Notes under the pieces: model-generated
The model's input: only the letters and a program-made list of their open reading frames with translations
Databases searched by the model: none
What the model was told of the DNA's origin: nothing
Assembly (NCBI GenBank): GCA_963777955.1
Contig: CAVZSQ010000022.1
Span: forward strand, 256,001 to 320,000
Length of the DNA: 64,000 bases
Source of the DNA: Calditrichia bacterium
GTDB lineage: Bacteria; Calditrichota; Calditrichia; JAJRVZ01
Direction: 5' to 3'
Translations under genes and position numbers: made by a program
Shown here: in pieces, positions 35,235 through 49,919 of the stretch
How the letters are laid out: each line of letters starts with the position of its first letter
How positions within the stretch are numbered: the stretch's first letter is position 1

Positions 35235-35368
35235 AAAAATCGGCAATTCACTTTTTCGCAAAAGGATCCGTTCCATCCCATTTTCCACTATATGTATTTT
35301 TTCATGGATAAACCTCATGCGTGCAGTTTTCGAGTGCTGTTTATGATCAGATTATTAGTTTCTCCTGA

Positions 35369-36539
35369 TCAGTTCAACGAATGCTTTTCCCGAATTGCAT
35401 CAGCCAGGGCATCCAGTTCTTTAAAGGTCTCGCTTTGCGGGCGGCCTTTGCACAGCATGGTACCGAGAACTTCGAATTTCAGATTCGACAGCAAGCCGGA
35501 GATATGATCCACGGCTTTAGTGCCCCAGCCGTATGAACCGATGAATGCCGCATACTTCAACTTGGGACGCAAAGAGTTCACCAGATGGACGGCTGAAATA
35601 ATACCGGGGTGCGGGCCGGTATTAACGGTAGGCGTGCCGATCACTATCGTCGCCGCATCAACCAAAGCCATGGCCAGTTTGCCAATATCGGTGGTTGTCA
35701 ATTCGAATTTCTGAACCGTGATGCCTCTCTCCGCCAGTGCTGCGACCAGATAGTTCACCATCGTTTCCGTACTCCCGTGCATAGATATATACGGTATGAC
35801 AACATTGTTCGATACACGGTCAGAAACCCAGTCTTCGTAAGCAGATAAAATGATTTCAGGATGATCGAAAACCGGTCCGTGACTTGGTGCAATAAAGTCA
35901 AACTTCAATTCACGCAATTTTTTTAAATTTTTCTGGATCATTGTGCGAAAGGGCATCATAATTTCAGCATAGTAACGCTTGGCCGCTTCAATGATCTGAG
36001 GATTCTCTCCGGCATACAGCTCAGACATGGCCATGTGCGAACCCAGGAAATCGCAGCTAAACACAATGCGGTCTTCCGGCAGGTAAGTGACCATGGTCTC
36101 CGGCCAGTGGACCCAGGGAGTATAAATGAAACGAAGCGTTTTGTTGCCCAGCGAAAGAGTTTCACCATCCTCAACGGTCTTGATTCGCTCAACAGGAATT
36201 CCCAGGTGGTCAACCAGCATATCTTTCGCCTTTGCACTGCACAGAACCATGGACTGCTTGTACAACTCCAGGATCAGCGGAATGGAACCCGAGTGGTCCT
36301 GCTCGGTGTGTTGTGATATTATATAGTCAATTTTTTTCACGTCAGCCAACTGGACCTTTCAACGCATCGGCCATAGCCGGTTCTACTGTATCGATCAGGA
36401 CTGTCTTTTCCGATCCCTGCACCAGGTAAGCATTATAGCTGGTACCGTCCGGAAGCGGAATTAATGCATCAAATAACCGCCGGTTCCAGTCTACCACTCC
36501 CAGCCAATACACACCGTCACAGATTTTTCTTGGGTTCAT
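35369..36539 (-). CDS. fprA: Flavodiiron protein (FprA/A-type flavoprotein); split by a +1 insertion (~36354)
   Basis: [37 protein letters not shown], flavodoxin SMHGST and GSYGW. Confidence 0.92.
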
Positions 36540-36540
36540 T

Positions 36541-39500
36541 TTATATTTCCTTTGTACGACAATTTTTTACCGAATTTGCTGTTTGCAGTTTACCCATATA
36601 AACGAGTATCCTGTGCTTGACCAGACCATGATCCAACGGGATCAGGCCATCCTTCACGATCTGACCGTCAATCTCTATCCGGGAAACGCCACGTACGCAG
36701 TGCTCCGGATTATCGACCTGAATTTCGTAGATCGCTTCACCGTGGCGATAGATAATTTGGAAACCATCCCACCATCCCGGAATGACCGGGTCGAGCCGTA
36801 ACGAGTGTCCATGCACCTTCAGGCCCAGGATCTCTTCAATCCAGGCACGGTACATCCACGCTGCTGAACCCGTATACCATGACCAGCCACCATGACCGAC
36901 CCGTCCGGACACACTGCTCACATCGGCCGCAACCACATAAGGTTCAATACCATAACGCCAGACTGCTTCCGGATTACGGGCGTGTTCAATCGGGTTGAGC
37001 ATGTGCAGCATTTTCGCCGCCCGGTCACCATCTCCACTGCGGGCCAGAGCCATTGCCAGCCATAGTGCAGCGTGGGTGTATTGGCCTCCATTCTCCCGCA
37101 CCCCTGGCGGGTAACCCTTGATGTATCCCGGTGATGGCTCCATTTGGTCAAACGGAGGCTCGAAAAGCAGCACCAGTCCCTCATCCTCACGAACGAGATG
37201 ATTCCAGGCCGATTCAAGTGCCTGTTTGGCACGATTTGGATCGGCATCACCGCTTAGCCAGGCCCAGGATTGAGGCAGGGAATCGATCCTCGCTTCTGTA
37301 TTCGTCGTGGAACCAAGGGGTGTTCCATTGTCAAAGAAAGCCCGTATATACCATTCCCCATCCCATGAAAACTGTTCAATACACTGGATCAGCGCTTTTC
37401 GATTTTGCTGGTAGGTCTGGCTCAGCTCAGGTCGGCCCAGGCGATCTGACATCTCGATCATTCCCTTCAGCACATCCGCCATGAACCACGCTAACCAAAC
37501 ACTCTCACCCTTGCCCCCGGCCCCTACGTGATTCAGCCCATCGTTCCAGTCTCCGGTTCCCATCAGGGGCAATCCATGTGGTCCAAAGATTTGACTGCGT
37601 TTGATCGCACGCTGGCAGTGCTCGAAGAGCGGGGAGCGTTCTAATGAGATCTCCGGTGATTGAAAACTCTCCTGCTGATCGTCTTTCAGTACAGGGGAGT
37701 CGAGATAAGGGACCATCTCGTTCAGGATGTTCACATCATCGGTGGTCCTGATGTATTGAGCGACAACGTACGGTAGCCAGAGGTGATCATCGGAGATCCG
37801 CGAGCGGATTCCGGCGCCACCCGGCGGATGCCACCAGTGCTGGACATCACCTTCCCTGAATTGACGGCTGGCCGCCAGCAGGATGTGATCACGCGCCAGC
37901 CCGGGAAGTGTGTAAAGCAGTACCATCACGTCCTGCAGTTGATCACGGAAGCCAAAGGCACCACCGGACTGATAAAAGGCGGAACGACCCCATATTCGGC
38001 AGGCAAGGCTTTGATAGAGCAGCCAGCGGTTGATCAGGAAATCCGTGGCTAGTTCGGGGGTATGCACCTGGATTGTGCCTAGCCGATCATCCCACCATAC
38101 CTGGGTTTGCTCGAGCGCAATCTTCAGCGCCCGACTGTCGCGGTTGGCCAGCACCATATCATGTACCTGCTGCAACGATGAGGCCTGCCCGAGCATGCAG
38201 GTGATTTCACTATGTTCACCGGGAGCCAGTTTCAGGGTGATCTGTAACGCGGCGCAAGGGTCCAGGCCCGCTCCGGTCCGGCGTGATAACCTGGTTCGCT
38301 CCATTGCCACCGGATTCTCCAGCGAGCGGTTGCGCCCAATGAAGGTGGTGCGATCGCCTGTGTAAATCTGCGTAGGCACGCTCATAGCCGTAAAGGCTAC
38401 CCGATCTGCCAAATCCGGATGGTAGTAGTTGCGGGCAATCATAGCCTGGACTTCGTCATCCCAGTCGGTCACCACATGCATCTGAGAAAACTCACGAGAC
38501 TCGCCCAGGGTCCACTCCACATAATATGTAAGCGACAGTTTGCGTGATCTGGCGGAGTCGTTCCTGAGTGAAAGTCTTTGCAACTTGATTGGTTTGCCCC
38601 CCTGATCATCCATGGGAACGAAAACCGTCAATTCCTGCTCGATACCATGGCTATTATGCTCGAAGACCGTATACCCCGCCCCGTGCCTGGTCCGGTAAGC
38701 GGTCTCTTCGCGGATCGGTGCTGCGGTCGGTGTCCAGTAGACACCGGTTTCCTCGTCCCGGATATATAATGCTTCAGAAGGCGGATCCATTACAGGATCA
38801 TTCGACCATTGTGTCAGGCGATTGCGCTGGCTGTTGCCCTGCCAGGTGAAGCCGGCTCCAGTTTCACTGACGAGAGTGCCGAAGGTCGGGTTGGCGAGGA
38901 CATTGATCCAGGGTGCGGGTGTGTTTATACCCGGACCAAGATAGATTACATATTCGCGGCCATCCGGAGTAAAACCACCCAGGCTATTGAAGAAGGGCAG
39001 TTCCATAAAGCGGAGTGCTGCCGAAGGATCACGGGGATCGCGTTTCCAGGTTATGGGTACAGTCAAATCGGGAGATTCCAATTGCACACCCATTTGTTGG
39101 GGCAAAGCACCGCGGGCTGCCACCAACACCACGCTTGCCGCGGCCCGCAGGAGTGTCAGATCTTCCGTTGGAATAAGATCCGCACTGCGTAAATAAATAC
39201 CCCCGGGCTGCTCCACCCCGGTAGTAGCCGAATGGGATTGGATCATTTGTTCGAGTTGTTCACGCAGCGGTTGCGTATAACCACCGGTCTCTTCGTTCAG
39301 GATCACCAGGTCGGCCATCAGCCCGTGCATGCGCCAATAGGTATGCGCCTGGAGTATTTGACGGACCAGGTTCAGATCCGTCGTTTCGCCAATAGCGACC
39401 AGGACAATGGGCAAGTCACCCGAGATGGCATAAGCCCATAAGCCGGCCTGACCCTTACGGTTTTCAGCAATGCGTTTCGCGGTGGCACGCAAGAGTAGAT

Positions 39501-42500
39501 TAGGGTACAGCAGGTGACTTGCCAGTTGCTGGAAACGTCGTGCATCGTCGGGCTGGATGCGCAGCAGACGCAACTCTAGTTGCGCTGATGCCCAGGCAAA
39601 GTCCATCGCCTGATCGATAGCATGTGGATCGCTATATTTGCTCATCAGACTAAGCACCTGTTCCCGTGTTTCGCCGGCGGCTAAAACCAGAGAGACCCGC
39701 ACTCGCTGACCTGGATTCAGGTTCAGACTCTGGCGCAGGCTTAGAATCGGGTCCAGAACAAATCCCTGGCTATTGCCGGGTTCCTGAAAGACACCCATCG
39801 GCCTGGCGAGTGTCCGGCCACGACCGATAAAGCGGCGCCGGTCGGTCTCGAAGCGCAAGGCCTGACCTTCGGCCTGCTCCAGCGTAAAGCGGTGCGCAAC
39901 AGCGACAGGTGGATCATCGCTACTGCGCGGCCGACGGTTGGCCAGGAGTACTTTCTGCTCAGGCAGCGCCTCGGTCCGGATGAATAGTTTATTGAACGCC
40001 GGATGCTGACGATCCACATTGTGCGGCGCCAGCGAGAGTTCAACGTAACTCGTCAGATCGAGTTGGCGATTGTGCGGGGAACGATTGATCAGCGTTATTC
40101 GCCTGATCTCAACGTCATCTTCCGGTGCAACGATAATTTCGGTTTCACTCTCAATACCATGATCAACGCGCCGGAACACGGCACGGTCGAGCGTGAAGGT
40201 GACGTTATATTTCTCAGCCTTTCCGCACGTTGGTTGATAGGTATTGCACCATAACTGATCCGAATCGGTATCGTGTATGTAACAAAAGGTTCCCCATGAA
40301 TCCCGGGTCCGATCCGATCGCCAGCGTGTGATTTCAAAGTTACCCCAGCGACTGTAGCCGCCACCGGCGTTTGTCAGCATCAGGCCATAGCGACCATTAC
40401 ACAGCAGTTGGGTCTTGGGTGTGGCGGTATGCGGCGTTTCAGATTGGTTGACCGAAGGCGCGACCTCGCCAACACTCGCCACTGAAGATACCCGTACACG
40501 CGGGGAGATGTAGTGCAGTGACGGCAGGCTTGGGATACGTTCATGAAGCAATGGTTCAACGGTGCGTATACGCGGGTCATTATGGAAATGACGCTGCAGC
40601 GAATTATCATGAAGAAAATTGGTCAGGGCCAGGAAACTCATTCCCTGGTGATGGGCCATGTAGGTTTGCACGATCACCCCACGTTCACCCTCGCGGTTTG
40701 GTTGTTGGCTGTAATCCAGTGCTTCATAATAACCGTAATCACTCAGCATGCCCAGCTTGACCAACCGTTTCAAGTTATGCACGGTTGCCCGGGGCGCGAC
40801 ACTCACTGCCAGCAGGGTGGCATAAGGTGCGATTACAATCTTGTTCGCCAGGCCGCGTTTGAGCCCAAGTTCAGGCACACCAAAGGCTTGATATTGATAA
40901 TTTTTTTGAATATCCAAATCCCCAAAGGCGCACTCCGAAATTCCCCACGGCACCCGGTGCTTACGGCTGTAATCGATCTGTATCGCCACGGCTTCCCGGA
41001 CGGATTTATCCAACAGCGAACTCCCATAGGAGCGCTGGAAAAGCAGCGGCATGAGGTACTCGAACATCGTCCCGGTCCAACTGAGCAGCGCCCGGCGTCG
41101 GCCGATGGCGCCATACGGCCGGTTCATAGCAAACCAATGCTCGACCGGAATATCTCCGCGGGCGATGGCGATGAAACTTCCCAGGCGCGCTTCGCTCGCC
41201 AATAGATCGTAAAAGGCGCGGTCCAGGCGTCCTTCCGAGACATTATAACCGATCGAAAATAAACGGAATTCAGTGTTGTAAAGGAAGCGCATATTGATCG
41301 ATGTGGATAGTTCACGTCCCGATTGAATGAGTCGCTCTGTGGAAGCCAGCATCTCACCAGCCAGCCATTTCGATGTTTCGAAGGCCTCCAAAACTCGATC
41401 AATCCAGCCGCGCAGGGCGAACTCATCCACCGGGGCTTTCTCCTTGATTGACCGGAGGGAGGCGATACAGGGGATGTGTCCACCGGCAAGGGACAGAAGC
41501 GAGGGTGCGCGGCGCAGCGCCCGGCGAAAATACGGCAGGGCATCCGGATCCATTTTGGCGATATCTTCTTCGGTCTTTTCAGCCAGGATTGTAATCCAGG
41601 CTGAGATATCGATCTGCAATGCTCAGCAAAGCCGCGAGTTGGTTCTGTATCTGGCTGGCCCAATAGACTATGCTCCCCTGAACGGCAGCAGATCCATGGG
41701 TTTTTGTGAACAAACTTCTGACCCGATCCTCCGCCTGTCGCAGCAGGCCAGGAGTATCCGTGATAATATCCGGAGGGGATTTCCATATGCCCAGCAATTC
41801 ATCCAGGGATTGAACATCCAAAGCAGAGACCTGCTCTTCCCGGCTAACCTGTCGCAGAACTTCGCCGGTGTCGCGCAATCCCGCAAATCCTTTCACATCC
41901 AACAACGGAACCTGCATAAGCGTCTTAAGCCACTGGTCCAGAGCCCACAAGGCCCCCAGCAGATTACCGCTGTCCACGGTAGAAACGTATTGCGGTTTCA
42001 GAGGAGCCAGGGTTTGAATGTCGTACCAATTGAGCAGATGACCCTCATAGCGCTCCAGTTTATCAATCGTTTCCATCGTCTGTGTCAGTTTATATATGAC
42101 CTCATCCACGGTTAAATATCCGAAATTATGGGCGCTGATTACGCTGACCATATAGAGACCAATATTGGTCGGGCTGGTCCGCAGGGCCAGTTTCTTCTGA
42201 TGGCTGATCTGGTAGTTGTCGGGAGGAAGCCATGAGGTTTCTTTATTCACAAAATCTGAAAAATAACGCCAGGTTCGCCTGGCAATATTTCTCAGGAACT
42301 GCCGATCCTCTGCCGCAAGCAGAAATTGTGACTGCTTCAGCAATGGTCGCCGGTTAAGGAGCCAGCCGATCATCGGGGAAAGAAACCAGAGCATCAGCCA
42401 GGGACTGACCACCCAGATGTTTGTTGGTCTCCACCACTGCATCGCCCAGCCAATAATCACGCTGAACAGGCTCACCAGACCAATTGAAAACAGAAATACA

Positions 42501-45500
42501 GGCACTTTGGCCTGAGCACTGCTATACATCACCTGGGCCGAAGTCCACTCCAATAACCGTCGATGCGAAAAGTGTCGGCGATAGAAGACCCGTGCTATGG
42601 CATCCAGGGCCAGCCAGGCCTGGAACGGAAGCAGTGCTGCTTCAACCAGCAATCGCAGCAGATCATGTGCTGTTTTGGTAAGGGAGACGCTTTTGAGGCT
42701 CTGCCCGGTTGTAGCCCAGGTGAACGGCTGCACCAGGGAGTGAAAGAACAGTTGGGTGGTGACCACAATAGTAGCAACCCACCCGGCCTGAACGGAGATT
42801 AACCAGGAGATCATCAGTAAACTCAGATTGATTACGGGCAGCAGGCTGCGGCGCAGATTATCGATTACCTTCCAGCGATCGAACCAGGAGAGCGGATTTT
42901 TTCCTCGACGCCCGCCGCCGGGTTGGGGAACACGCGGTTTGATCCAATCCACAATCTGCCAATCGCCGCGAATCCAGCGGTGCTGCCGGTTGATGTAACT
43001 CAGGTAATCCTGCGGGAATTCATCATAGAGCTCGACATTGCTGGCCAGACCCACCCGGACGTGAGCACCTTCAATCAAATCATGGCTGAGGAGCAAGGCC
43101 TCAGGAAACCTGCCGGAAAGCAATTGGTTGAAAGTGTGCACATCATAGATGCCTTTGCCGTGATAGGAACCTTCTCCAGTCAGGTCCTGGTATACATCGG
43201 AAACTGCATTGGTATAGGGATCGATACCGACCGGGTACGAAAACAGCCGGCTGAAAGGTGAACCACTCATGCTCGGCAGGGATGGGCTGACGCGCGGTTG
43301 AATTATCGTGTAACCGGATTGGACCTGACCTGCGTCATCAAAGCGCGCCTGGTTCAGCGGATGCGCCAGGATCTCGATCATCCTGCGGGCGGTGTCATGC
43401 GGCAATTGCGTGTCGCTGTCCAGAGTAATGACGAATCTTACGTTGGATAATTGATCCTGGTCGCCGACGTAAACGAGGCGATCTGCCTCACGAGGCCGCG
43501 TGCCAGCAATCAGGCCATTGAGTTCTTCCAGTTTTCCGCGTTTGCGTTCCCAGCCTATGAATTTTTGCTCGGATACAGACCATTTTCGCTGCCGGTGGAA
43601 CAGGAAGAAACGTTCGCCGCCATGGCGTTGATTGAGGGTGTTAATACACTGCGTTATGGCCTCAAGCAGGGACTCGTCATCTGCACAATGGGCCTGCAGC
43701 GCATCTTTGTAATCAGAATAAAGAGCAAAGAGCAGATTGGCCTCTTTATTAGCCAGATAGCGGATCTCAATCTTTTCCGCTTCGGCTTTAATGGTCTCCA
43801 GATCTACTAGTATCATAGGCACGATGACCAGCGTCCGGCAGGAATCGGGAATCCCTGAAATCCTGAAATCCATCTTTGGCAGAATGCGCGGAGGAAACAG
43901 CCGTATCACCAGGTAATTCAGCACTTCAAGTGAGATCTGGCTCATAGGGATGAACAAGAGGGCAGCGATAAGAATCTGAATCCAGGGGGATTGTGTACGC
44001 AAACCGGACCAGATAGCCAGGAAAATGAAGGCAGCACAGAAAAAAGCAAGCCCGAGAAAGTACACTATCGAGTGATGACGATAAGACCATTGCAGGGTGT
44101 GGAAACGTAATGTCTCTTGGCAGTCAACGAGCCGGGCCAGATCCTTTCTTTTTTCGCCAATTAAATAAGTTCCGATATGAATCGACCGTTCATCTTGAGA
44201 TGAATCGCCAGCAGCCTGGGTTGCCATCTCTACGGTGCGTTGAGCAATCCCGTCTTCTGCCAGGCCGGACCCGCGGTGGAGCTGTTCTATCACCCGGCGA
44301 TACTGATCCCGCGTGGCGAAATCCATCCGGGGATAGATGCCGGCCGGATCCTGCCGCAGTATCTGCTCCACTCTGCTGAGCTTTTCGAAGCATTCTTTCC
44401 AATCAAGCAGGGCCAGCTGGCGCAGGCTGTTAAAGGCGTTCCCAATGGATATTTGATCCTTGGCCTGGCGGTTTTTTTCATGCAGACTGAGTTCGTTCAG
44501 GGATTTGTGGAATATACTCTCAAGCCAGCTCTGCACCGGGGCCAGGGCGTTCCTGTCGTCATAGAGGTAATCTATCAGCTGAGCTGCGAAATAGGGGCTC
44601 GGATTGGGCTGGGTTTCGGTCAGTTCCGCCATGATCGAGAAAAGCTGGCTGGGATATCGCCGGTTGACTGTAATGAGCCGGTTTGCCCAGAAATTCGCTA
44701 TCTCCCCTTCACGCAGTTCCGACAATGCTCGGGCAGCGAGATGATGGATACCCTCGATAAGCGCGGTACGCAGCATTTGGGGAACGGCCCAGAGTTCGCC
44801 GATCGAAAGTGGCTCCACCGATTGATAGGCCTCAATAAAAGCCAGAATATTCTCCTGATCAAGGCGCAGATCGGCATGAGCAGCAAGTTCACGCGCCAGA
44901 CCGTAGATGCGCGGTAGTCCCCGGTCTGTCTCACTGGCCAGTGCCGGCAGCTGCCGGTAAAAATGCCGGGGTACATTCAGCCGAACATCGTGAGCGTTAC
45001 TCTCCAGGATATATTCATTATCAAGGAGCCAATCGGTGGTAGGTGGTACATTCTGCTGCAGGCGACTTGCTTCGGAGAGGTCCAGGCATACCTCCTGGAT
45101 CCACCTGCGGCCCTGTTCGAGCCGCTTGAGCAGTTTTGTATCCCGGAGCGGTTTAGAATCTATCTGGTGCTCCCTGGCCAGATGCCGGGCATGGTCCTGA
45201 AACTGCACCAGATTGAATGATATCTCAGCAGGGTTCCAGTTCTCTCCAACCAGGCTCATGCGCCGGGGGTGCAGGACGAATACTGCAGGCGGGGTCTCGC
45301 CGCTTTCCAGCAAAAGGGTGAAGGGGAGGCGCAATGTTTCGATCGGCCCCTGGAGAATGATGACGGTCTCACCGGATACGAGCCAGCGTGTATGATTTAC
45401 AAGTAGATTTCGCTCGACGCCAAACCTCGATCGCCGTATCCAGGCCAGGCTGAACAGGATTCCGCTGAATCCACCCAGCAGAACGGGGATCAGGTTATAA

Positions 45501-45754
45501 GGAAATTGGCTGAGTATCGGATCCGATCTCTGCAGGCTCAGCCAGGATAGTGTGGCCAGTGCTCCGAACAGGATAAACGACAGGACTGCCCCCAGAACCA
45601 GGCGCCGGCGGAAGGGATCCCCTGTCCCGACTATTCCCTCCATGCTCTTGCTCACCCAGGCAATGCGGCGGTAACCCTTTCGCTTTAAGTTAGCGAAGGC
45701 TTCAAGGGCCTCATCATGTTTAGCGAAGTAGCCAATGAGGATGCCTGTTTTCAT
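36541..45754 (-). CDS. ndvB: Cyclic beta-1,2-glucan synthase (GT84 + glycoamylase-like cyclisation domain + GH94 phosphorylase); split by a +1 insertion (~41602)
   Basis: [102 protein letters not shown]. About 3070 aa when joined. Confidence 0.93.
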
Positions 45755-46156
45755 TTATACTCCTTGAAGCAGAATACCACACTGAGCAATTATTTACTTG
45801 AGATACAGGATGTATATGATATGCACGGGAACGCGGTATGATCAGACAATGATAAACCGATCAAGGTAATGTGACCCGGGATAATCCGGGATAAGGGAAA
45901 ATAACCAGGAGCAGGCATAATGTCAACACGGCCATTCCAGGGGCAGGCCATTTATCACTCAAATGAGGTAAAGCAAATCGGAGGAAAACACCCTTCTGCT
46001 TTTAGTGCCTTTCTTTGTCACTTTTTTTATTGCTATAATACATCCGTATTTCCATATTGTGGTTGTTCCTGGTGGTGATTGTAGATGAAATTATGACTGT
46101 CAGAATTTATTCTGGACAATCCGGTCTTAACCAGGAAGTATAAAAGAGAAAAAACC

Positions 46157-47696
46157 ATGGAAAAAATAGAAAATTGCATCATCGTCATCTTTGGTGCTAC
46201 CGGGGATCTGACTAAACGAAAACTTATGCCAGCCCTGTTCAACCTGTTTCAAAACAAACTACTGCCGGATAATTTTGCCGTGCTGGGCATTGGTCAGACC
46301 GCCCACACTGACGAATCATTCCGTGATAAAATGACGGAAAGTATCAATCCCTTTCTCAAAAGCAATCAGGTGGAAAAAGGTGATCTTACTGATTTCTTAA
46401 AACATCTTTACTACCAGAGTATGGATAGCACAGCAATGGCTAGTTATCCACTATTAAAACAGCGTCTGGTACAAATCGATCAACAGGTACAGGCCAATGG
46501 CAATTATATTTACTACCTGGCTACCTTTCCAAATCACTTCGAAATCATCGCCCGCCATTTGGGTCAACAGGGCTTGCAAAAACAGGGTAAAGGTTTTGGC
46601 TGGAAACGCATTGTATTTGAAAAACCGTTTGGTTACGATCTGTCTTCTGCTCAAATCCTGAACCGGCAGATCCAGCGTATATTCCATGAAGAACATATTT
46701 ACCGCATCGATCACTATTTAGGCAAAGAGACTGTACAGAATATACTGGCTTTTCGTTTCGCCAACGGGATTTTTGAGCCGTTGTGGAACCGGAATTATAT
46801 CCACCATGTGGAATTGACCGCTGCCGAAGATATCGGCGTGGAAAATCGCGGTCGTTACTACGATAATGCCGGAGCACTTGCGTGATATGGTGCAAAACCA
46901 CCTGCTGCAACTAATGGCCACTATTGCCATGGAACCGCCGGCTAAATTTGAGGCTACCACCATTCGCAATGAAAAGGTAAAGGTCTTCCAATCCCTTTGT
47001 CCGATCCATCCGGATGATGTGGCCAAACGTGTGATCCGTGGCCAGTATCTCGCCTCGACCATCCGCGGAGCAAAAGTAAATGGTTATCGCGATGAAAATA
47101 ACGTCTCTGCTGAGTCCAAGACCGAAACCTTTGTGGCTATGAAGTTTGGTATCGACAACTGGCGCTGGGGTGGCGTGCCCTTTTATATTCGCACGGGCAA
47201 ACGTCTGCCCACCCGGGTAACGGAGATTGTGATCCATTTCAAAAAAACTCCCCATTATCTGTTTACCCGTGAATTGATGGTGGATATTCCGGCCAACCAG
47301 TTGATTCTGCGCATCCAGCCCGATGAGGGTATTCTTTTAAAATTCGGAATGAAAATGCCGGGCGCCGGTTTTCAGATCAAAACGGTCAATATGGATTTTC
47401 ATTATTCCGATCTGGGCAATAATACCCCCCTGCCCGATGCGTACCAGAGATTATTGCTGGATTGTATTCTTGGTGACCCGCTGCTCTATGCCCGCGGCGA
47501 TGCGGTCGAAGCCTGCTGGTCGTTCTTAATGCCGGTATTGCAGGCCTGGCAGAATAATCCGGATATCAAACTTTACGGTTATCCGGCCGGCACCTGGGGA
47601 CCAATTGAAGCCAATACATTATTTAGCGAACCGGGAGTAGAATGGCGGTATCCCTGTAAAAACCTGGCCCAGGATGGAGAATACTGCGAATTATGA
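46157..47696 (+). CDS. zwf: Glucose-6-phosphate 1-dehydrogenase; split by a +1 insertion (~46878)
   Basis: IFGATGDL, EKPFG, RIDHYLGKETVQN, GALRDMVQNH after correction, GVPFYIRTGK, RIQPDEG. Confidence 0.96.
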
Positions 47697-48431
47697 AGCC
47701 CCAGATAAAAATTTTTCATAACGATATCGAAATGGCCGATAAATTAGCCAATGAACTTCAGGGGGCCATGGAGCAGATTAAAAAGCAAACAACAGTACTT
47801 TTATCTGGCGCTATCAGGAGGCAATACACCGATTACATTCTATAAACGGTTGGCCCAGGTCCCTTACCAGACAGCAGGTTGCCTGGAGTTGTCTGCATCT
47901 TTTCTGGGTGGATGAACGCTGCGTGCCGGCGGATCATCCGCAGAGCAATTATGGCCTGGCCCGCTATAACCTGCTGGCACATGTGAATGTACCCGAAAAA
48001 AATATTCACCGCTTGCGCGGCGAAGCAGATCCGGCAACGGAGGCAAGCAGATATGCCGGGGAAATAAAAAATACGCTCCCTGCAACCGGTCATGCGCTGG
48101 CCACGGTTCGATTGGATACTGCTGGGATTAGGCAGCGATGGCCATACCGCCTCACTTTTTCCGGGTTCACCTGTATTAAAGGAAAAAAATGCTCTTTGCG
48201 CGGTGGCAGTTCAGCCGGACAGCGATCAACAACGGATCACTTTTACCCTGCCGCTGATCAATCATGCCCGGCGCATTACATTTTTAGTGACCGGGGAAAG
48301 CAAAGCCGGCTATGGTGGCCGGTATCTTAAAGCGGACCACAGCATGCCGGCAATTACCGGCAGCTCAGGTGCAGCCTGAGCACGGGTTTGTAGAATGGTA
48401 TCTGGATTCAATGGCCGCGGCGATGATTTGA
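47693..48431 (+). CDS. pgl: 6-phosphogluconolactonase; four apparent +1 insertions
   Basis: ATGA overlap with the zwf stop; motifs across frames LALSGGNTP, FWVDERCVP..HPQSNY, FDWILLGLGSDGHTASLFP, RITFTLPLIN, LPAAQV, WYLD; TGA 48431. Confidence 0.9.
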
Positions 48432-48466
48432 TCGATTTTCTGGGATATTCTACTACAACAATAAAT

Positions 48467-48556
48467 TGTCACGCAGGGACAAATGAAAATAGCCCACCAA
48501 TTTATTGGTGGGAAAGGTGAAATATAGAAATCATTCCGTCCTGTAGGGACGGTCGA
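48467..48556 (+). repeat. REP-like double-hairpin block 3' of tnpA
   Basis: GTCACGCAGGGAC-AAATGAAAATAG-CCCACCAATTTATTGGTGGG (48493-48512) ... CCGTCCTGTAGGGACGG (48536-48552). Confidence 0.85.
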
Positions 48557-48562
48557 AACATT

Positions 48563-49015
48563 TTATCCCCATATATACCTTTCATCATATTCAATGTTGT
48601 GTTTTTTTAAAAATGCAATGTATTCCTCCTTAAATGACATTGTTCTATGATGTTTATTCTGCGTATTTATGTAAGAAATTGTATTTGCCAGATGAGACAC
48701 ACTTATACTAAAAGCGCCATATCCTTCCTGCCAGTTAAAATCTTTAAAATTTGGATATGTCTCATGAACCCATTTTGAAGCGCCGCCTTTGATTAATTGA
48801 ATGGCTTTCGCAACGGAAAGGGTTGTGGGCATTGATAGCAGAAGATGGACATGGTCTTCGACTCCACCGATGGCCAGTGCTTTCATATTGTTTTCGCGAG
48901 CGATTCCACCCATGTATGCCCATAATCGCTCCTGCAAATCAGATGAAATTATTTTTTTATGATATTTTGTACTGAAAATGTAATGGATTACAATATTGGT
49001 ATATGTATTGGCCAT
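48563..49015 (-). CDS. tnpA: IS200/IS605-family (Y1 HUH) transposase, RAYT-like
   Basis: HYIFSTK, DHVHLL (HUH), WQEGYGAFS, YINTQNKHH (catalytic Tyr); intact 150-aa frame. Confidence 0.93.
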   Translation of the reverse strand: MANTYTNIVIHYIFSTKYHKKIISSDLQERLWAYMGGIARENNMKALAIGGVEDHVHLLLSMPTTLSVAKAIQLIKGGASKWVHETYPNFKDFNWQEGYGAFSISVSHLANTISYINTQNKHHRTMSFKEEYIAFLKKHNIEYDERYIWG

Positions 49016-49052
49016 ATGTTTGCTCTATTATTATTACATTTTACATTCATGC

Positions 49053-49648
49053 GTCCCTATGGGACTGTAAATATAAGGCAATATTCGTGCCTAATTACCC
49101 ACCAATAAATTGGTGGGCTATTATCAACAATCCCCTGCGGGATTGCGGGATTGAATGCATTATTTCGTTCCCACCAATGAATTGGCGGGCTATTATTCAA
49201 CAATCCCTACGGGATTGGGGGGGGATGCATCATTTCGTTCCCACCAATAAATTGGTGGGCTATTTTCAGCAATCCCTGCGGGATTGGGGGGTGGTGAATG
49301 CATAATTTCGTTCCCACCAATAAATTGGTGGGCTATTTTCAACCATCCCTACGGGATTGCGGGGTTGAATGCATAATTTCGTTCCCACCAATAAATTGGT
49401 GGGCTATCTGTCGGCAATCCCTACGGGATTGGGGGGGTGAATGCATAATTTCATTCCCACCAATAAATTGGTGGGCTATTATCAACAATCCCTGCGGGAT
49501 TGCGGGATTGAATGCATTATTTCGTTCCCACCAATAAATTGGTGGGCTATTTTCAACAATCCCTACGGGATTGGGGCGAATGCATTATTTCGTTCCCACC
49601 AATAAATTGGTGGGCTATTATCATTGAATCCCTATGGGATTCAATGAT
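49053..49648 (-). repeat. Tandem array of eight ~71-bp double-hairpin units upstream of tnpA
   Basis: CCCACCAATAAATTGGTGGG (two substitutions in copy 2) starts at 49098, 49170, 49240, 49313, 49384, 49456, 49527 and 49595, each followed by CTAT, a CAATCCCT(A/G)CGGGATTG-type hairpin and (units 1-7) ATGCAT...TTC(G/A)TT. Confidence 0.95.
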
Positions 49649-49700
49649 TGAAATCAAATCCGGAGTCAATTTTAAAAATAATTTTAAGTAATAATAGAAC

Positions 49701-49919
49701 CGTTCTGCGGGGTAGATGAGAGTAGCCTATCAATTTATTGATCGGGAACAGGAAATTAAAAAATTGTTCCGCTGGGACGGATGAGAATGGCCAATCAATT
49801 TATTGGTGGGGAACAGGAAATGAAAAATTGTCCCGCAGGGACGGATGAAAATAGCCCGCCAATTTATTGGCGGGGAAATGTAGAATAACAAAACGATTCC
49901 GTCCCGTAGGGACGGTTGA
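49701..49919 (+). repeat. Three progressively degenerate ~65-bp double-hairpin units, inverted relative to the main array
   Basis: Hairpin-A variants at 49726, 49791 and 49855; hairpin-B variants including GTCCCGCAGGGAC (49830) and CCGTCCCGTAGGGACGG (49899). Confidence 0.85.

Follow-up and report, generated by a model that had tools for sequence, protein, structure and literature searches.

A Y1 nuclease gene of an IS200-like branch bracketed by mirror-image three-hairpin modules in a Calditrichia bacterium

Introduction

Genes for Y1 HUH nucleases (tnpA) occur beside several kinds of palindromic repeats. In elements of the IS608 type, which belong with the IS200/IS605 insertion sequences (IS), the left and the right end lie on one strand (PMC3333891). 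REPtrons consist of a single-copy Y1 gene between inverted repetitive extragenic palindromes (REPs), in which an unpaired xTAG stands 5′ of the hairpin as the guide (PMC8266576, PMC3479197). In E. coli, bacterial interspersed mosaic elements (BIMEs) can stand in tandem and are amplified locally beside the Y1 gene, and TnpA-REP assembles multi-REP products in vitro (PMC3333891). In TIRtrons (Di Nocera et al., 2013, PMC3733652), the Y1 genes (TIRYT) are flanked by terminal inverted repeats (TIRs), among them the “double palindromic TIRs” of Acidobacteria. Finally, TnpA-Y1 subclass 1.2, described in 2018, is recorded with REP “no” and as generally devoid of the typical terminal IS200 structures (Quentin et al., 2018, PMC6006769). 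Here we analyze a stand-alone tnpA gene with the features of this subclass, located in a 64,000-nt stretch of a Calditrichia bacterium (assembly GCA_963777955.1, contig CAVZSQ010000022.1, positions 256,001–320,000), hereafter called the window.

Unlike what has been published for subclass 1.2, this gene and most of its homologues are bracketed by a conserved module of three hairpins. Both the subclass and the repeat motif have been published separately; the new point is the REP-like flanks of a subclass 1.2 gene. A published link between subclass 1.2 and the Rfam motif Acido-Lenti-1, which corresponds to part of the module, was not found in Creative Commons PMC papers or bioRxiv (ISfinder lay outside this search). 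We consider it probable (about 0.72) that an IS200-like branch of these proteins has a repeat system resembling REPs and BIMEs, to which the locus belongs; the enzyme would act on the single-stranded DNA of the module, and local amplification would occur.

A three-hairpin module brackets the tnpA gene

Read towards the gene, the module is composed of hairpin B, about 8 nt, an NTAG tetranucleotide (the foot), hairpin A, about 25 nt and hairpin C, and two such modules bracket tnpA in mirror image (Table 1). Folding the three end modules as DNA on both strands yielded z values between −4.4 and −5.7, and 0 of 200 shuffled sequences were as stable. Hairpin A is predicted to have an 8-bp stem and a 4-nt loop, whereas the first-pass annotation of this DNA, made from the sequence alone, had given a 9-bp stem; it had also taken the unit for a two-hairpin one, overlooking hairpin C. 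On the other hand, its count of eight tandem units upstream of the gene, with spacings of 72, 70, 73, 71, 72, 71, and 68 nt, matches ours exactly, as do the inverted copy downstream (48467–48512) and the three beyond the array (~49697–49877), for a total of 12 A hairpins, two of which are degenerate. The three units beyond the array do exist, but they form a separate half-element that faces away from tnpA and has its own hairpin C. These outward-facing, more decayed units are likely an older half-element; a degenerate C-A remnant was read by eye at the matching site of the congener G001.

Hairpins A and B and their conserved joiner fit the Rfam family RF01687 (Acido-Lenti-1; Weinberg et al., 2010, PMC2864571), which is filed as a two-hairpin small RNA (sRNA) on the opposite strand and has no third hairpin. 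Nine of the 12 units match this family, four above the gathering score of 37 bits (46.7, 43.8, 38.4, and 37.4) and five at 26.5–36.7 bits. Seven of the eight array units are found at E < 0.002, three of them above the gathering score; the 43.8-bit match lies inside the second half-element (49829–49874), and the downstream end module scores 29.5 bits on the minus strand. The unit is therefore not an undescribed one, as had been proposed, since its A and B part is already in Rfam and the protein subclass has been described (PMC6006769). The passages of PMC2864571 that are accessible do not tie Acido-Lenti-1 to a transposase, and its readable supplements contain 0 matches to COG1943 or IS200.

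Table 1. Positions in the window of the tnpA gene, its flanking modules and the neighboring half-element.
Feature	Position	Strand	Description
tnpA ORF	48563–49015	−	150 aa, intact; Y1/HUH nuclease gene
Downstream end module	48466–48552	+	B 48466–48480, ATAG 48489–48492, A 48493–48512, C 48536–48552
Hairpin C, upstream end	49053–49065	−	between array and tnpA start codon
Tandem array	49098–49641	−	eight B-ATAG-A-linker units; repeat scan, TRF score 796
Array unit starts	49098, 49170, 49240, 49313, 49384, 49456, 49527, 49595	−	
Array ATAG positions	49121, 49193, 49263, 49336, 49407, 49479, 49550, 49618	−	
Second half-element	49697–49915	+	faces away from tnpA; three degenerate B-foot-A units plus hairpin C
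Feet of second half-element	49722, 49787, 49851	+	period 64–65
Hairpin C of second half-element	49899–49915	+	at 3′ end of neighboring gene

The nuclease belongs to an IS200-like branch

The tnpA product matches Pfam Y1_Tnp (E = 1.9e-27) and carries the motifs D54-H55-V-H57, W95-Q96, and Y115-x3-Q119-x2-H122-H123, followed by a tail of about 30 aa. These agree with the DH[IV]H, WQ, and Y---Q--HH motifs of subclass 1.2 (PMC6006769, Table 1), and so do the low copy number and the lack of tnpB. The length is also close to the published ~148 aa, and the tail may correspond to the specific 30-aa C-terminal domain of the subclass. The first-pass annotation had suggested, as a check, placing the protein among IS200 TnpA and the REP-associated tyrosine transposases (RAYTs). 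The protein scores 69.2 bits against the NCBIfam IS200/IS605 model NF033573 (cut-off 55) and 22.7 bits against the REP_Tyr/RAYT model NF047646, far below the cut-off of 80. In an alignment of 105 homologues, the catalytic and signature residues are invariant or nearly so (Y115, Q119, and H122 invariant, H123 in at least 90%), and F128, E131, L136, D144, and Y147 are conserved in the C-terminal tail.

The predicted single-chain structure (pLDDT 94) fits solved IS200/IS605 TnpA structures best (Z 13.4–14.4, residues 2–111), compared with Z 10.4 over residues 5–133 for TnpA-REP. In this model the Tyr helix is placed as in TnpA-REP (root-mean-square deviation 2.8 Å over 118 columns; aligned residues 5–133); IS200/IS605 TnpA is an obligate dimer with a swapped catalytic helix, and because single-chain models can fold a swapped helix back, this likeness was not counted as evidence.

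The gene is intact and no tnpB was found among the neighboring open reading frames (ORFs), as the first-pass annotation had stated and as the ORF call and Pfam bear out; the three PF07282 matches in the genome are weak and all on other contigs. A single tblastn match at E < 0.01 gives a copy number of one in this 91.8% complete genome. The genome has three further Y1-family genes (C19:415057, C22:372164, and C22:1018191), one of which (242 aa) reads as class 2, and the three-hairpin module was not found at any of the three.

Compared with the described systems, the locus shares with IS200/IS605 elements (IS608 and ISDra2; structures 2vju and 2xqc) the core fold, the sequence family and hairpin ends with a tetranucleotide. 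It differs from them in having mirror-image ends, each directed gene-ward, rather than distinct left and right ends that share a strand, as well as in its single copy, the absence of tnpB, the Y---Q--HH motif and the 30-aa tail, which extends beyond the solved chains. The likeness to REPtrons (PMC3333891, PMC3479197, PMC8266576) lies in the single-copy Y1 gene between inverted palindromic repeats, the unpaired xTAG 5′ of a hairpin with the feet outside, the dispersed singles and doublets, the local tandem amplification and the co-divergence of repeats and enzyme. Unlike in REPtrons, however, the protein is of class 1, with Y---Q--HH in place of Y---NP and a score below the RAYT cut-off; the foot is mostly ATAG, the REP form being GT[AG]G; two additional hairpins with G-N-A loops keep constant distances; one branch lacks the hairpin that follows the foot; copies number tens rather than hundreds; and in one case the whole unit occurs twice, which REPtrons are said not to show. 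TIRtrons resemble the locus in their Y1 genes with long flanking inverted repeats, some of them self-complementary, and in their dispersed dimers (PMC3733652), but all 26 TIRYT examples are assigned to class 2 (PMC6006769). As for subclass 1.2 itself, the repeat table of PMC6006769 has no rows for it; all five occurrences of “1.2” are energy values. The locus would work like a REPtron, but it is not a REPtron by protein class, and its end geometry and copy number are not those of an ordinary IS200. The suggestion of the first-pass annotation that a stand-alone Y1 nuclease is tied to its own hairpin repeats is supported, the gene being single-copy and REP-like rather than an ordinary IS.

The module is conserved around homologous genes

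The loci compared are 167 after removal of duplicates (180 before), drawn from 160 loci that were the best-scoring ones of length-limited lists obtained via shared peptide words, 19 further loci, and the window. A detector for B, foot and A within 260 nt of the gene, which requires AG-C, identified the inward B-NNAG-A in 107 of the 155 flanks upstream of the gene and in 116 of the 158 downstream of it. The other strand of these flanks gave 24 and 33, respectively, and of 190 windows 1.5 kb away, 9 gave a match. Inward modules were present on both sides at 82 of 146 loci. An Rfam scan of 20 homologous loci returned 21 RF01687 matches in 12 loci, most of them less than ~250 nt from the gene, with opposite strands upstream and downstream of it. 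Module-flanked relatives of tnpA were found in many phyla; the locus of a 93% identical relative was looked for and not recovered.

The inward strand carries several marks. Among the 223 inward modules, 193 have T as the second base of the foot, which the detector leaves free (ATAG 116, GTAG 45, TTAG 24, CTAG 8), with ATAG at this locus. The B loops have the form G..A on this strand in 171 of 223 cases and the complementary T..C in 0, and the C loops have G..A in 143 of 207 and the complementary form in 2; d(GNA) loops are known to make very stable DNA hairpins (PMC3201870, PMC13037366). Of 130 A loops, 111 read TTCA or TTTA, and mismatches in the A stem, read on the inward strand, are G.T (20) rather than A.C (3). 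Since these loop, wobble and foot marks are on the strand opposite to the Rfam model, we infer that the folded substrate is single-stranded DNA, namely the inward strand.

All three stems covary, a check that the first-pass annotation had suggested for homologues. In 48 aligned modules, selected to have a standard A and NTAG as the foot, both partners vary at 16 of 18 base pairs, and 95% of the cells are paired (slid controls: 37–50%). Furthermore, similarity has a median of 0.81 between the two ends of one locus and of 0.58 between ends taken from different loci, and the A arm is identical at both ends in 41 of the 82 loci, against 2.6% between loci. Module similarity also follows protein similarity (Mantel rho 0.41), a correlation to which shared descent contributes; kin are not independent in this test or in the co-occurrence test below.

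Alternatively, the modules could be a structured RNA, i.e., Acido-Lenti-1 as filed, or a terminator-like element, in which case the array would give repeated small RNAs or regulate tnpA and the link to the gene would be regulatory. The Rfam entry is in line with this possibility, covariation cannot separate RNA from single-stranded DNA, and T runs follow several A hairpins on the Rfam strand (11 terminator-like sites vs. 2.1 expected). However, the modules are placed in mirror image at a fixed distance on both sides of the gene; the G-N-A triloops and the G.T wobbles of the A stem, which are found on the complement of the strand modeled by Rfam, fit folded DNA; promoter-like sites are not enriched (5 vs. 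5.8 expected), and the linkers are related to one another instead of being unique spacers. We thus regard an RNA origin of the modules as quite improbable, including the array of structured RNAs envisaged in the first-pass annotation. Judging from the sequence marks, Acido-Lenti-1, which makes up the outer part of the module, is likely the DNA substrate of the nuclease and not an RNA gene.

The B-NTAG-C spacing is kept in modules without hairpin A

In a distant set of 41 homologues (34–42% identity), many flanks have B, NTAG and C without hairpin A. The distance from the B loop to the end of the foot is 17–18 nt with or without A. From the NNAG foot to the C loop there are 49 nt in flanks with A, which become 29 nt once A is subtracted (n = 184 flanks), and 29–33 nt in 18 A-less flanks; these 18 are what is left of 26 distant rows minus 8 (six with a weak A by eye, two with other spacings), while the 31 near “no A” rows are scattered between 24 and 65 nt and uninformative. 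The A-less forms group on one 20-row branch of a quick tree (SH-aLRT 90). Because the foot-to-C spacing is kept with A subtracted or missing, hairpin A would behave as a loop-out and B-NTAG-C would be the conserved core. This spacing rule is compatible with NTAG as a guide or as a cut site.

At two sites of this genome (C3:21450–21510 and C15:323020–323095), one B hairpin is common to the A-containing module and to an A-less one, B-GTAG-C. The A-less module also flanks a 39% identical homologue in G001, which was not found in the present genome.

The tandem array as a probable local pile-up of the module

The period of the array corresponds to one module (17 + 3 + 20 + 31 = 71 nt), with each B sitting at the C position of the previous unit. 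The units are 85–99% identical, linkers included, and the linkers, described as variable and G-rich in the first-pass annotation, are variants of one 22–27-nt sequence. When the seven full units were compared, 20 of 21 pairs differed by 3–9 substitutions; the remaining pair, units 1 and 6, by one indel. Given the related linkers and these substitutions, the array is not spacer-like and very probably not a plain assembler copy. The alternative of an assembly artefact, or of a repeat-spacer array as in CRISPR, can draw on the near identity of units 1 and 6 and on the single-base indels that split zwf, pgl, and genes of the cotH region, all whole in G001 (7 gap openings in 2.3 kb). It is nevertheless extremely unlikely in view of the substitutions in the other 20 pairs, of the arrays of like period that flank homologues in other assemblies (71, 71, 72, and 83 nt), of linkers that are variants of a single sequence, and of the lack of any Cas family among the 10 neighboring ORFs (41.6–55.5 kb; Pfam). 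Four DNA read runs shared 5–8% of words; matched at 85%, they proved to be short contigs of relatives, none spanning the array.

The eight units are likely a local pile-up of the module. Of 313 homologous flanks, only six carry a run of at least 3 units, be it upstream or downstream of the gene, and the present array is the longest; short-read assemblies may hide some arrays. The array is a minor, sporadic feature of a known kind and not the defining one, as it had first seemed.

Gene-less copies and mobility

A profile built from the genome's own copies produced 33 matches at E < 0.01 and 0 in the reversed genome. Counted genome-wide, 17 distinct gene-less modules occupy 12 other sites, five as inverted doublets around a central C and seven as singles. 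Among 100 relatives, for which 54 candidates were scored per genome, RF01687 is present in 12 of the 13 with a homologue of at least 50% identity and in 34 of the 87 without one; likewise, it occurs in 42 of 71 relatives with any Y1 match and in 4 of 29 with none.

Several loci are syntenic across species (L002/L007/L036, 80% over 3 kb; L016/L018; L001/L095). On the other hand, one chromosome has two copies (L060 and L062) that are 96% identical over 695 bp in unrelated surroundings, the identity ending at the outer B hairpins; this is one case among ~100 loci compared. The term “domesticated”, used in the first-pass annotation, thus finds partial support, from the syntenic loci, whereas the genome with two copies of the whole unit speaks against it.

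These two copies are also an argument for a low-activity IS, in which B-A-C-tnpA-C-A-B would move whole, the gene-less doublets would be internal-deletion derivatives resembling miniature inverted-repeat transposable elements, and the array would reflect enzyme-independent slippage at one end. The protein does score as IS200/IS605 and its predicted core fits those structures best; the G077 doublets, with two C hairpins and a short spacer, resemble the unit minus its gene; and tnpA is missing from the matching region of G001. Against this stand the single copy, the inverted ends, unlike the left and right ends that share a strand in IS608-type elements (PMC3333891), the synteny of the genes at several loci and the finding that 7 of the 12 dispersed sites hold single modules. 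We consider a low-activity IS unlikely, noting that it overlaps with the REP/BIME-like explanation and differs from it in what moves.

A further possibility is that unrelated cut-and-paste transposases spread the modules, mainly as passengers of miniature elements with which the Y1 gene would only have its ends in common. In G074, a sharply ending tail of ~57 nt is attached to 11 near-identical copies, and in G077 nine doublets are enclosed by short terminal inverted repeats 40–60 nt beyond B, which points to another mobilizer acting in these two genomes; copy numbers are also high in genomes without a close homologue. As a general account this is very unlikely, considering that the 17 dispersed modules of the present genome have no common outer ends (by eye) and that orientation, end matching and co-divergence at tnpA would be left unexplained. 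A group II intron beside the G074 copies, suggested by a short motif, was considered and rejected (no Rfam intron match in 8 loci, no reverse transcriptase-sized ORF in L156).

The modules of G024 (L153/L157/L177/L181) are likewise found inside longer repeats whose outer ends are sharp and unrelated, similar to the miniature elements of another transposase.

Several results weigh against the REP/BIME-like explanation. At 64 of 146 loci at least one side has no detected module, and the G.T bias of the A stem is not seen in the other two (G.T vs. A.C: 13 vs. 17 in B and 3 vs. 9 in C; 36 vs. 29 over all stems, p = 0.46). RF01687 matches number 24–49 in G013, G014, G024, and G072, whose homologues are only 36–42% identical, and G066 has five with no Y1 match; the modules of G074 and G077 are embedded in longer repeats with unrelated sharp ends. 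No clean empty/filled pair was obtained when 5 of the 12 dispersed sites were searched in G001, where the flanks are mostly not orthologous (at two syntenic sites, the whole intergenic segment including small genes differs). Neither a cut site nor a target duplication was seen, and the tails beyond B vary by subfamily. Finally, CT does not occur on the inward strand of the array unit within the 120 nt inspected, so that a plain C|T model gives no cut inside each unit there, and only 45 of 223 feet are GTAG.

A proposed mechanism

By analogy with E. coli TnpA-REP and IS200/IS605 chemistry, the subclass 1.2 nuclease likely binds, cuts and rejoins B-NTAG-A-C modules as single-stranded DNA, with the inward strand as substrate and Tyr115 forming the 5′-phosphotyrosine link. 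Such cut-and-rejoin activity would account for both the gene-less copies in the genome and the eight-unit array. NTAG might serve as the specificity tetranucleotide or guide, as GTAG does in REPs, which would predict C|T cutting, and the spacing analysis suggests a B-NTAG-C core from which hairpin A is looped out. Since B and C are alike, both being hairpins with a G-N-A loop, cut-and-rejoin or primer extension between equivalent sites of successive modules could add one 71-nt unit each time; after two units exist, slippage or unequal recombination may lengthen the array without the enzyme. The Rfam “RNA” would then be the reverse complement of the B-NTAG-A part.

The B-NTAG-C geometry would resemble an abutted right-end/left-end junction as in IS608-type elements. 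We tentatively raise, as a rather doubtful option, a third Y1 chemistry between IS200 and RAYT, in which the enzyme would grip B and C on one strand and act at the NTAG between them, inserts such as A being looped out and carried along; one-module circles formed from cut to cut would build the 71-nt arrays and seed copies. If this were true, a very large nuclease family spanning several phyla would be a compact, retargetable system for insertion and amplification of single-stranded DNA.

Returning to the REP/BIME-like system, it offers a candidate substrate for a large Y1 subclass published as having none (7,990 of 7,996 scored database proteins are homologues) and a likely explanation at the DNA level for an Rfam family that continues to be interpreted as a regulatory sRNA (e.g., bioRxiv 10.64898/2026.02.09.704811). 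A class 1 protein with REP-like ends also bears on the origin of RAYTs from IS200 transposases.

The surrounding region

The neighbors of tnpA are zwf, pgl, and CotH/LTD-domain genes, with an SDR gene also among the 10 ORFs of 41.6–55.5 kb (Pfam). Single-base indels break the zwf, pgl, and CotH/LTD genes between window positions 46157 and 54378, their orthologues in G001 being whole. Contigs of relatives do not have several of the extra bases seen in this region; the indels are probably assembly errors, and part of the 68–73-nt spread of the array period may come from the same errors. Just upstream of the tnpA start, a small extra hairpin (49076–49092) brings the innermost A-to-C linker to 37 nt and could affect tnpA expression.

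The gene order of G001 is different: pgl abuts the 3′ end of a large gene (which ends at window position 36570), whereas after the cotH-region gene come a small gene and the flavoprotein gene of window 35366–36555. An 11.9-kb block (window 36570–48430, compared with G001) is circularly permuted and adjoins the repeat cluster here.

The dispersed modules often lie between small, AT-rich, co-oriented and variable genes, many of them lipoprotein-like, in regions unlike G001, a putatively cassette-like pattern. Next to a module remnant (L115, 2755–2872) lies a different palindromic repeat, whose family matches G001 at least 10 times.

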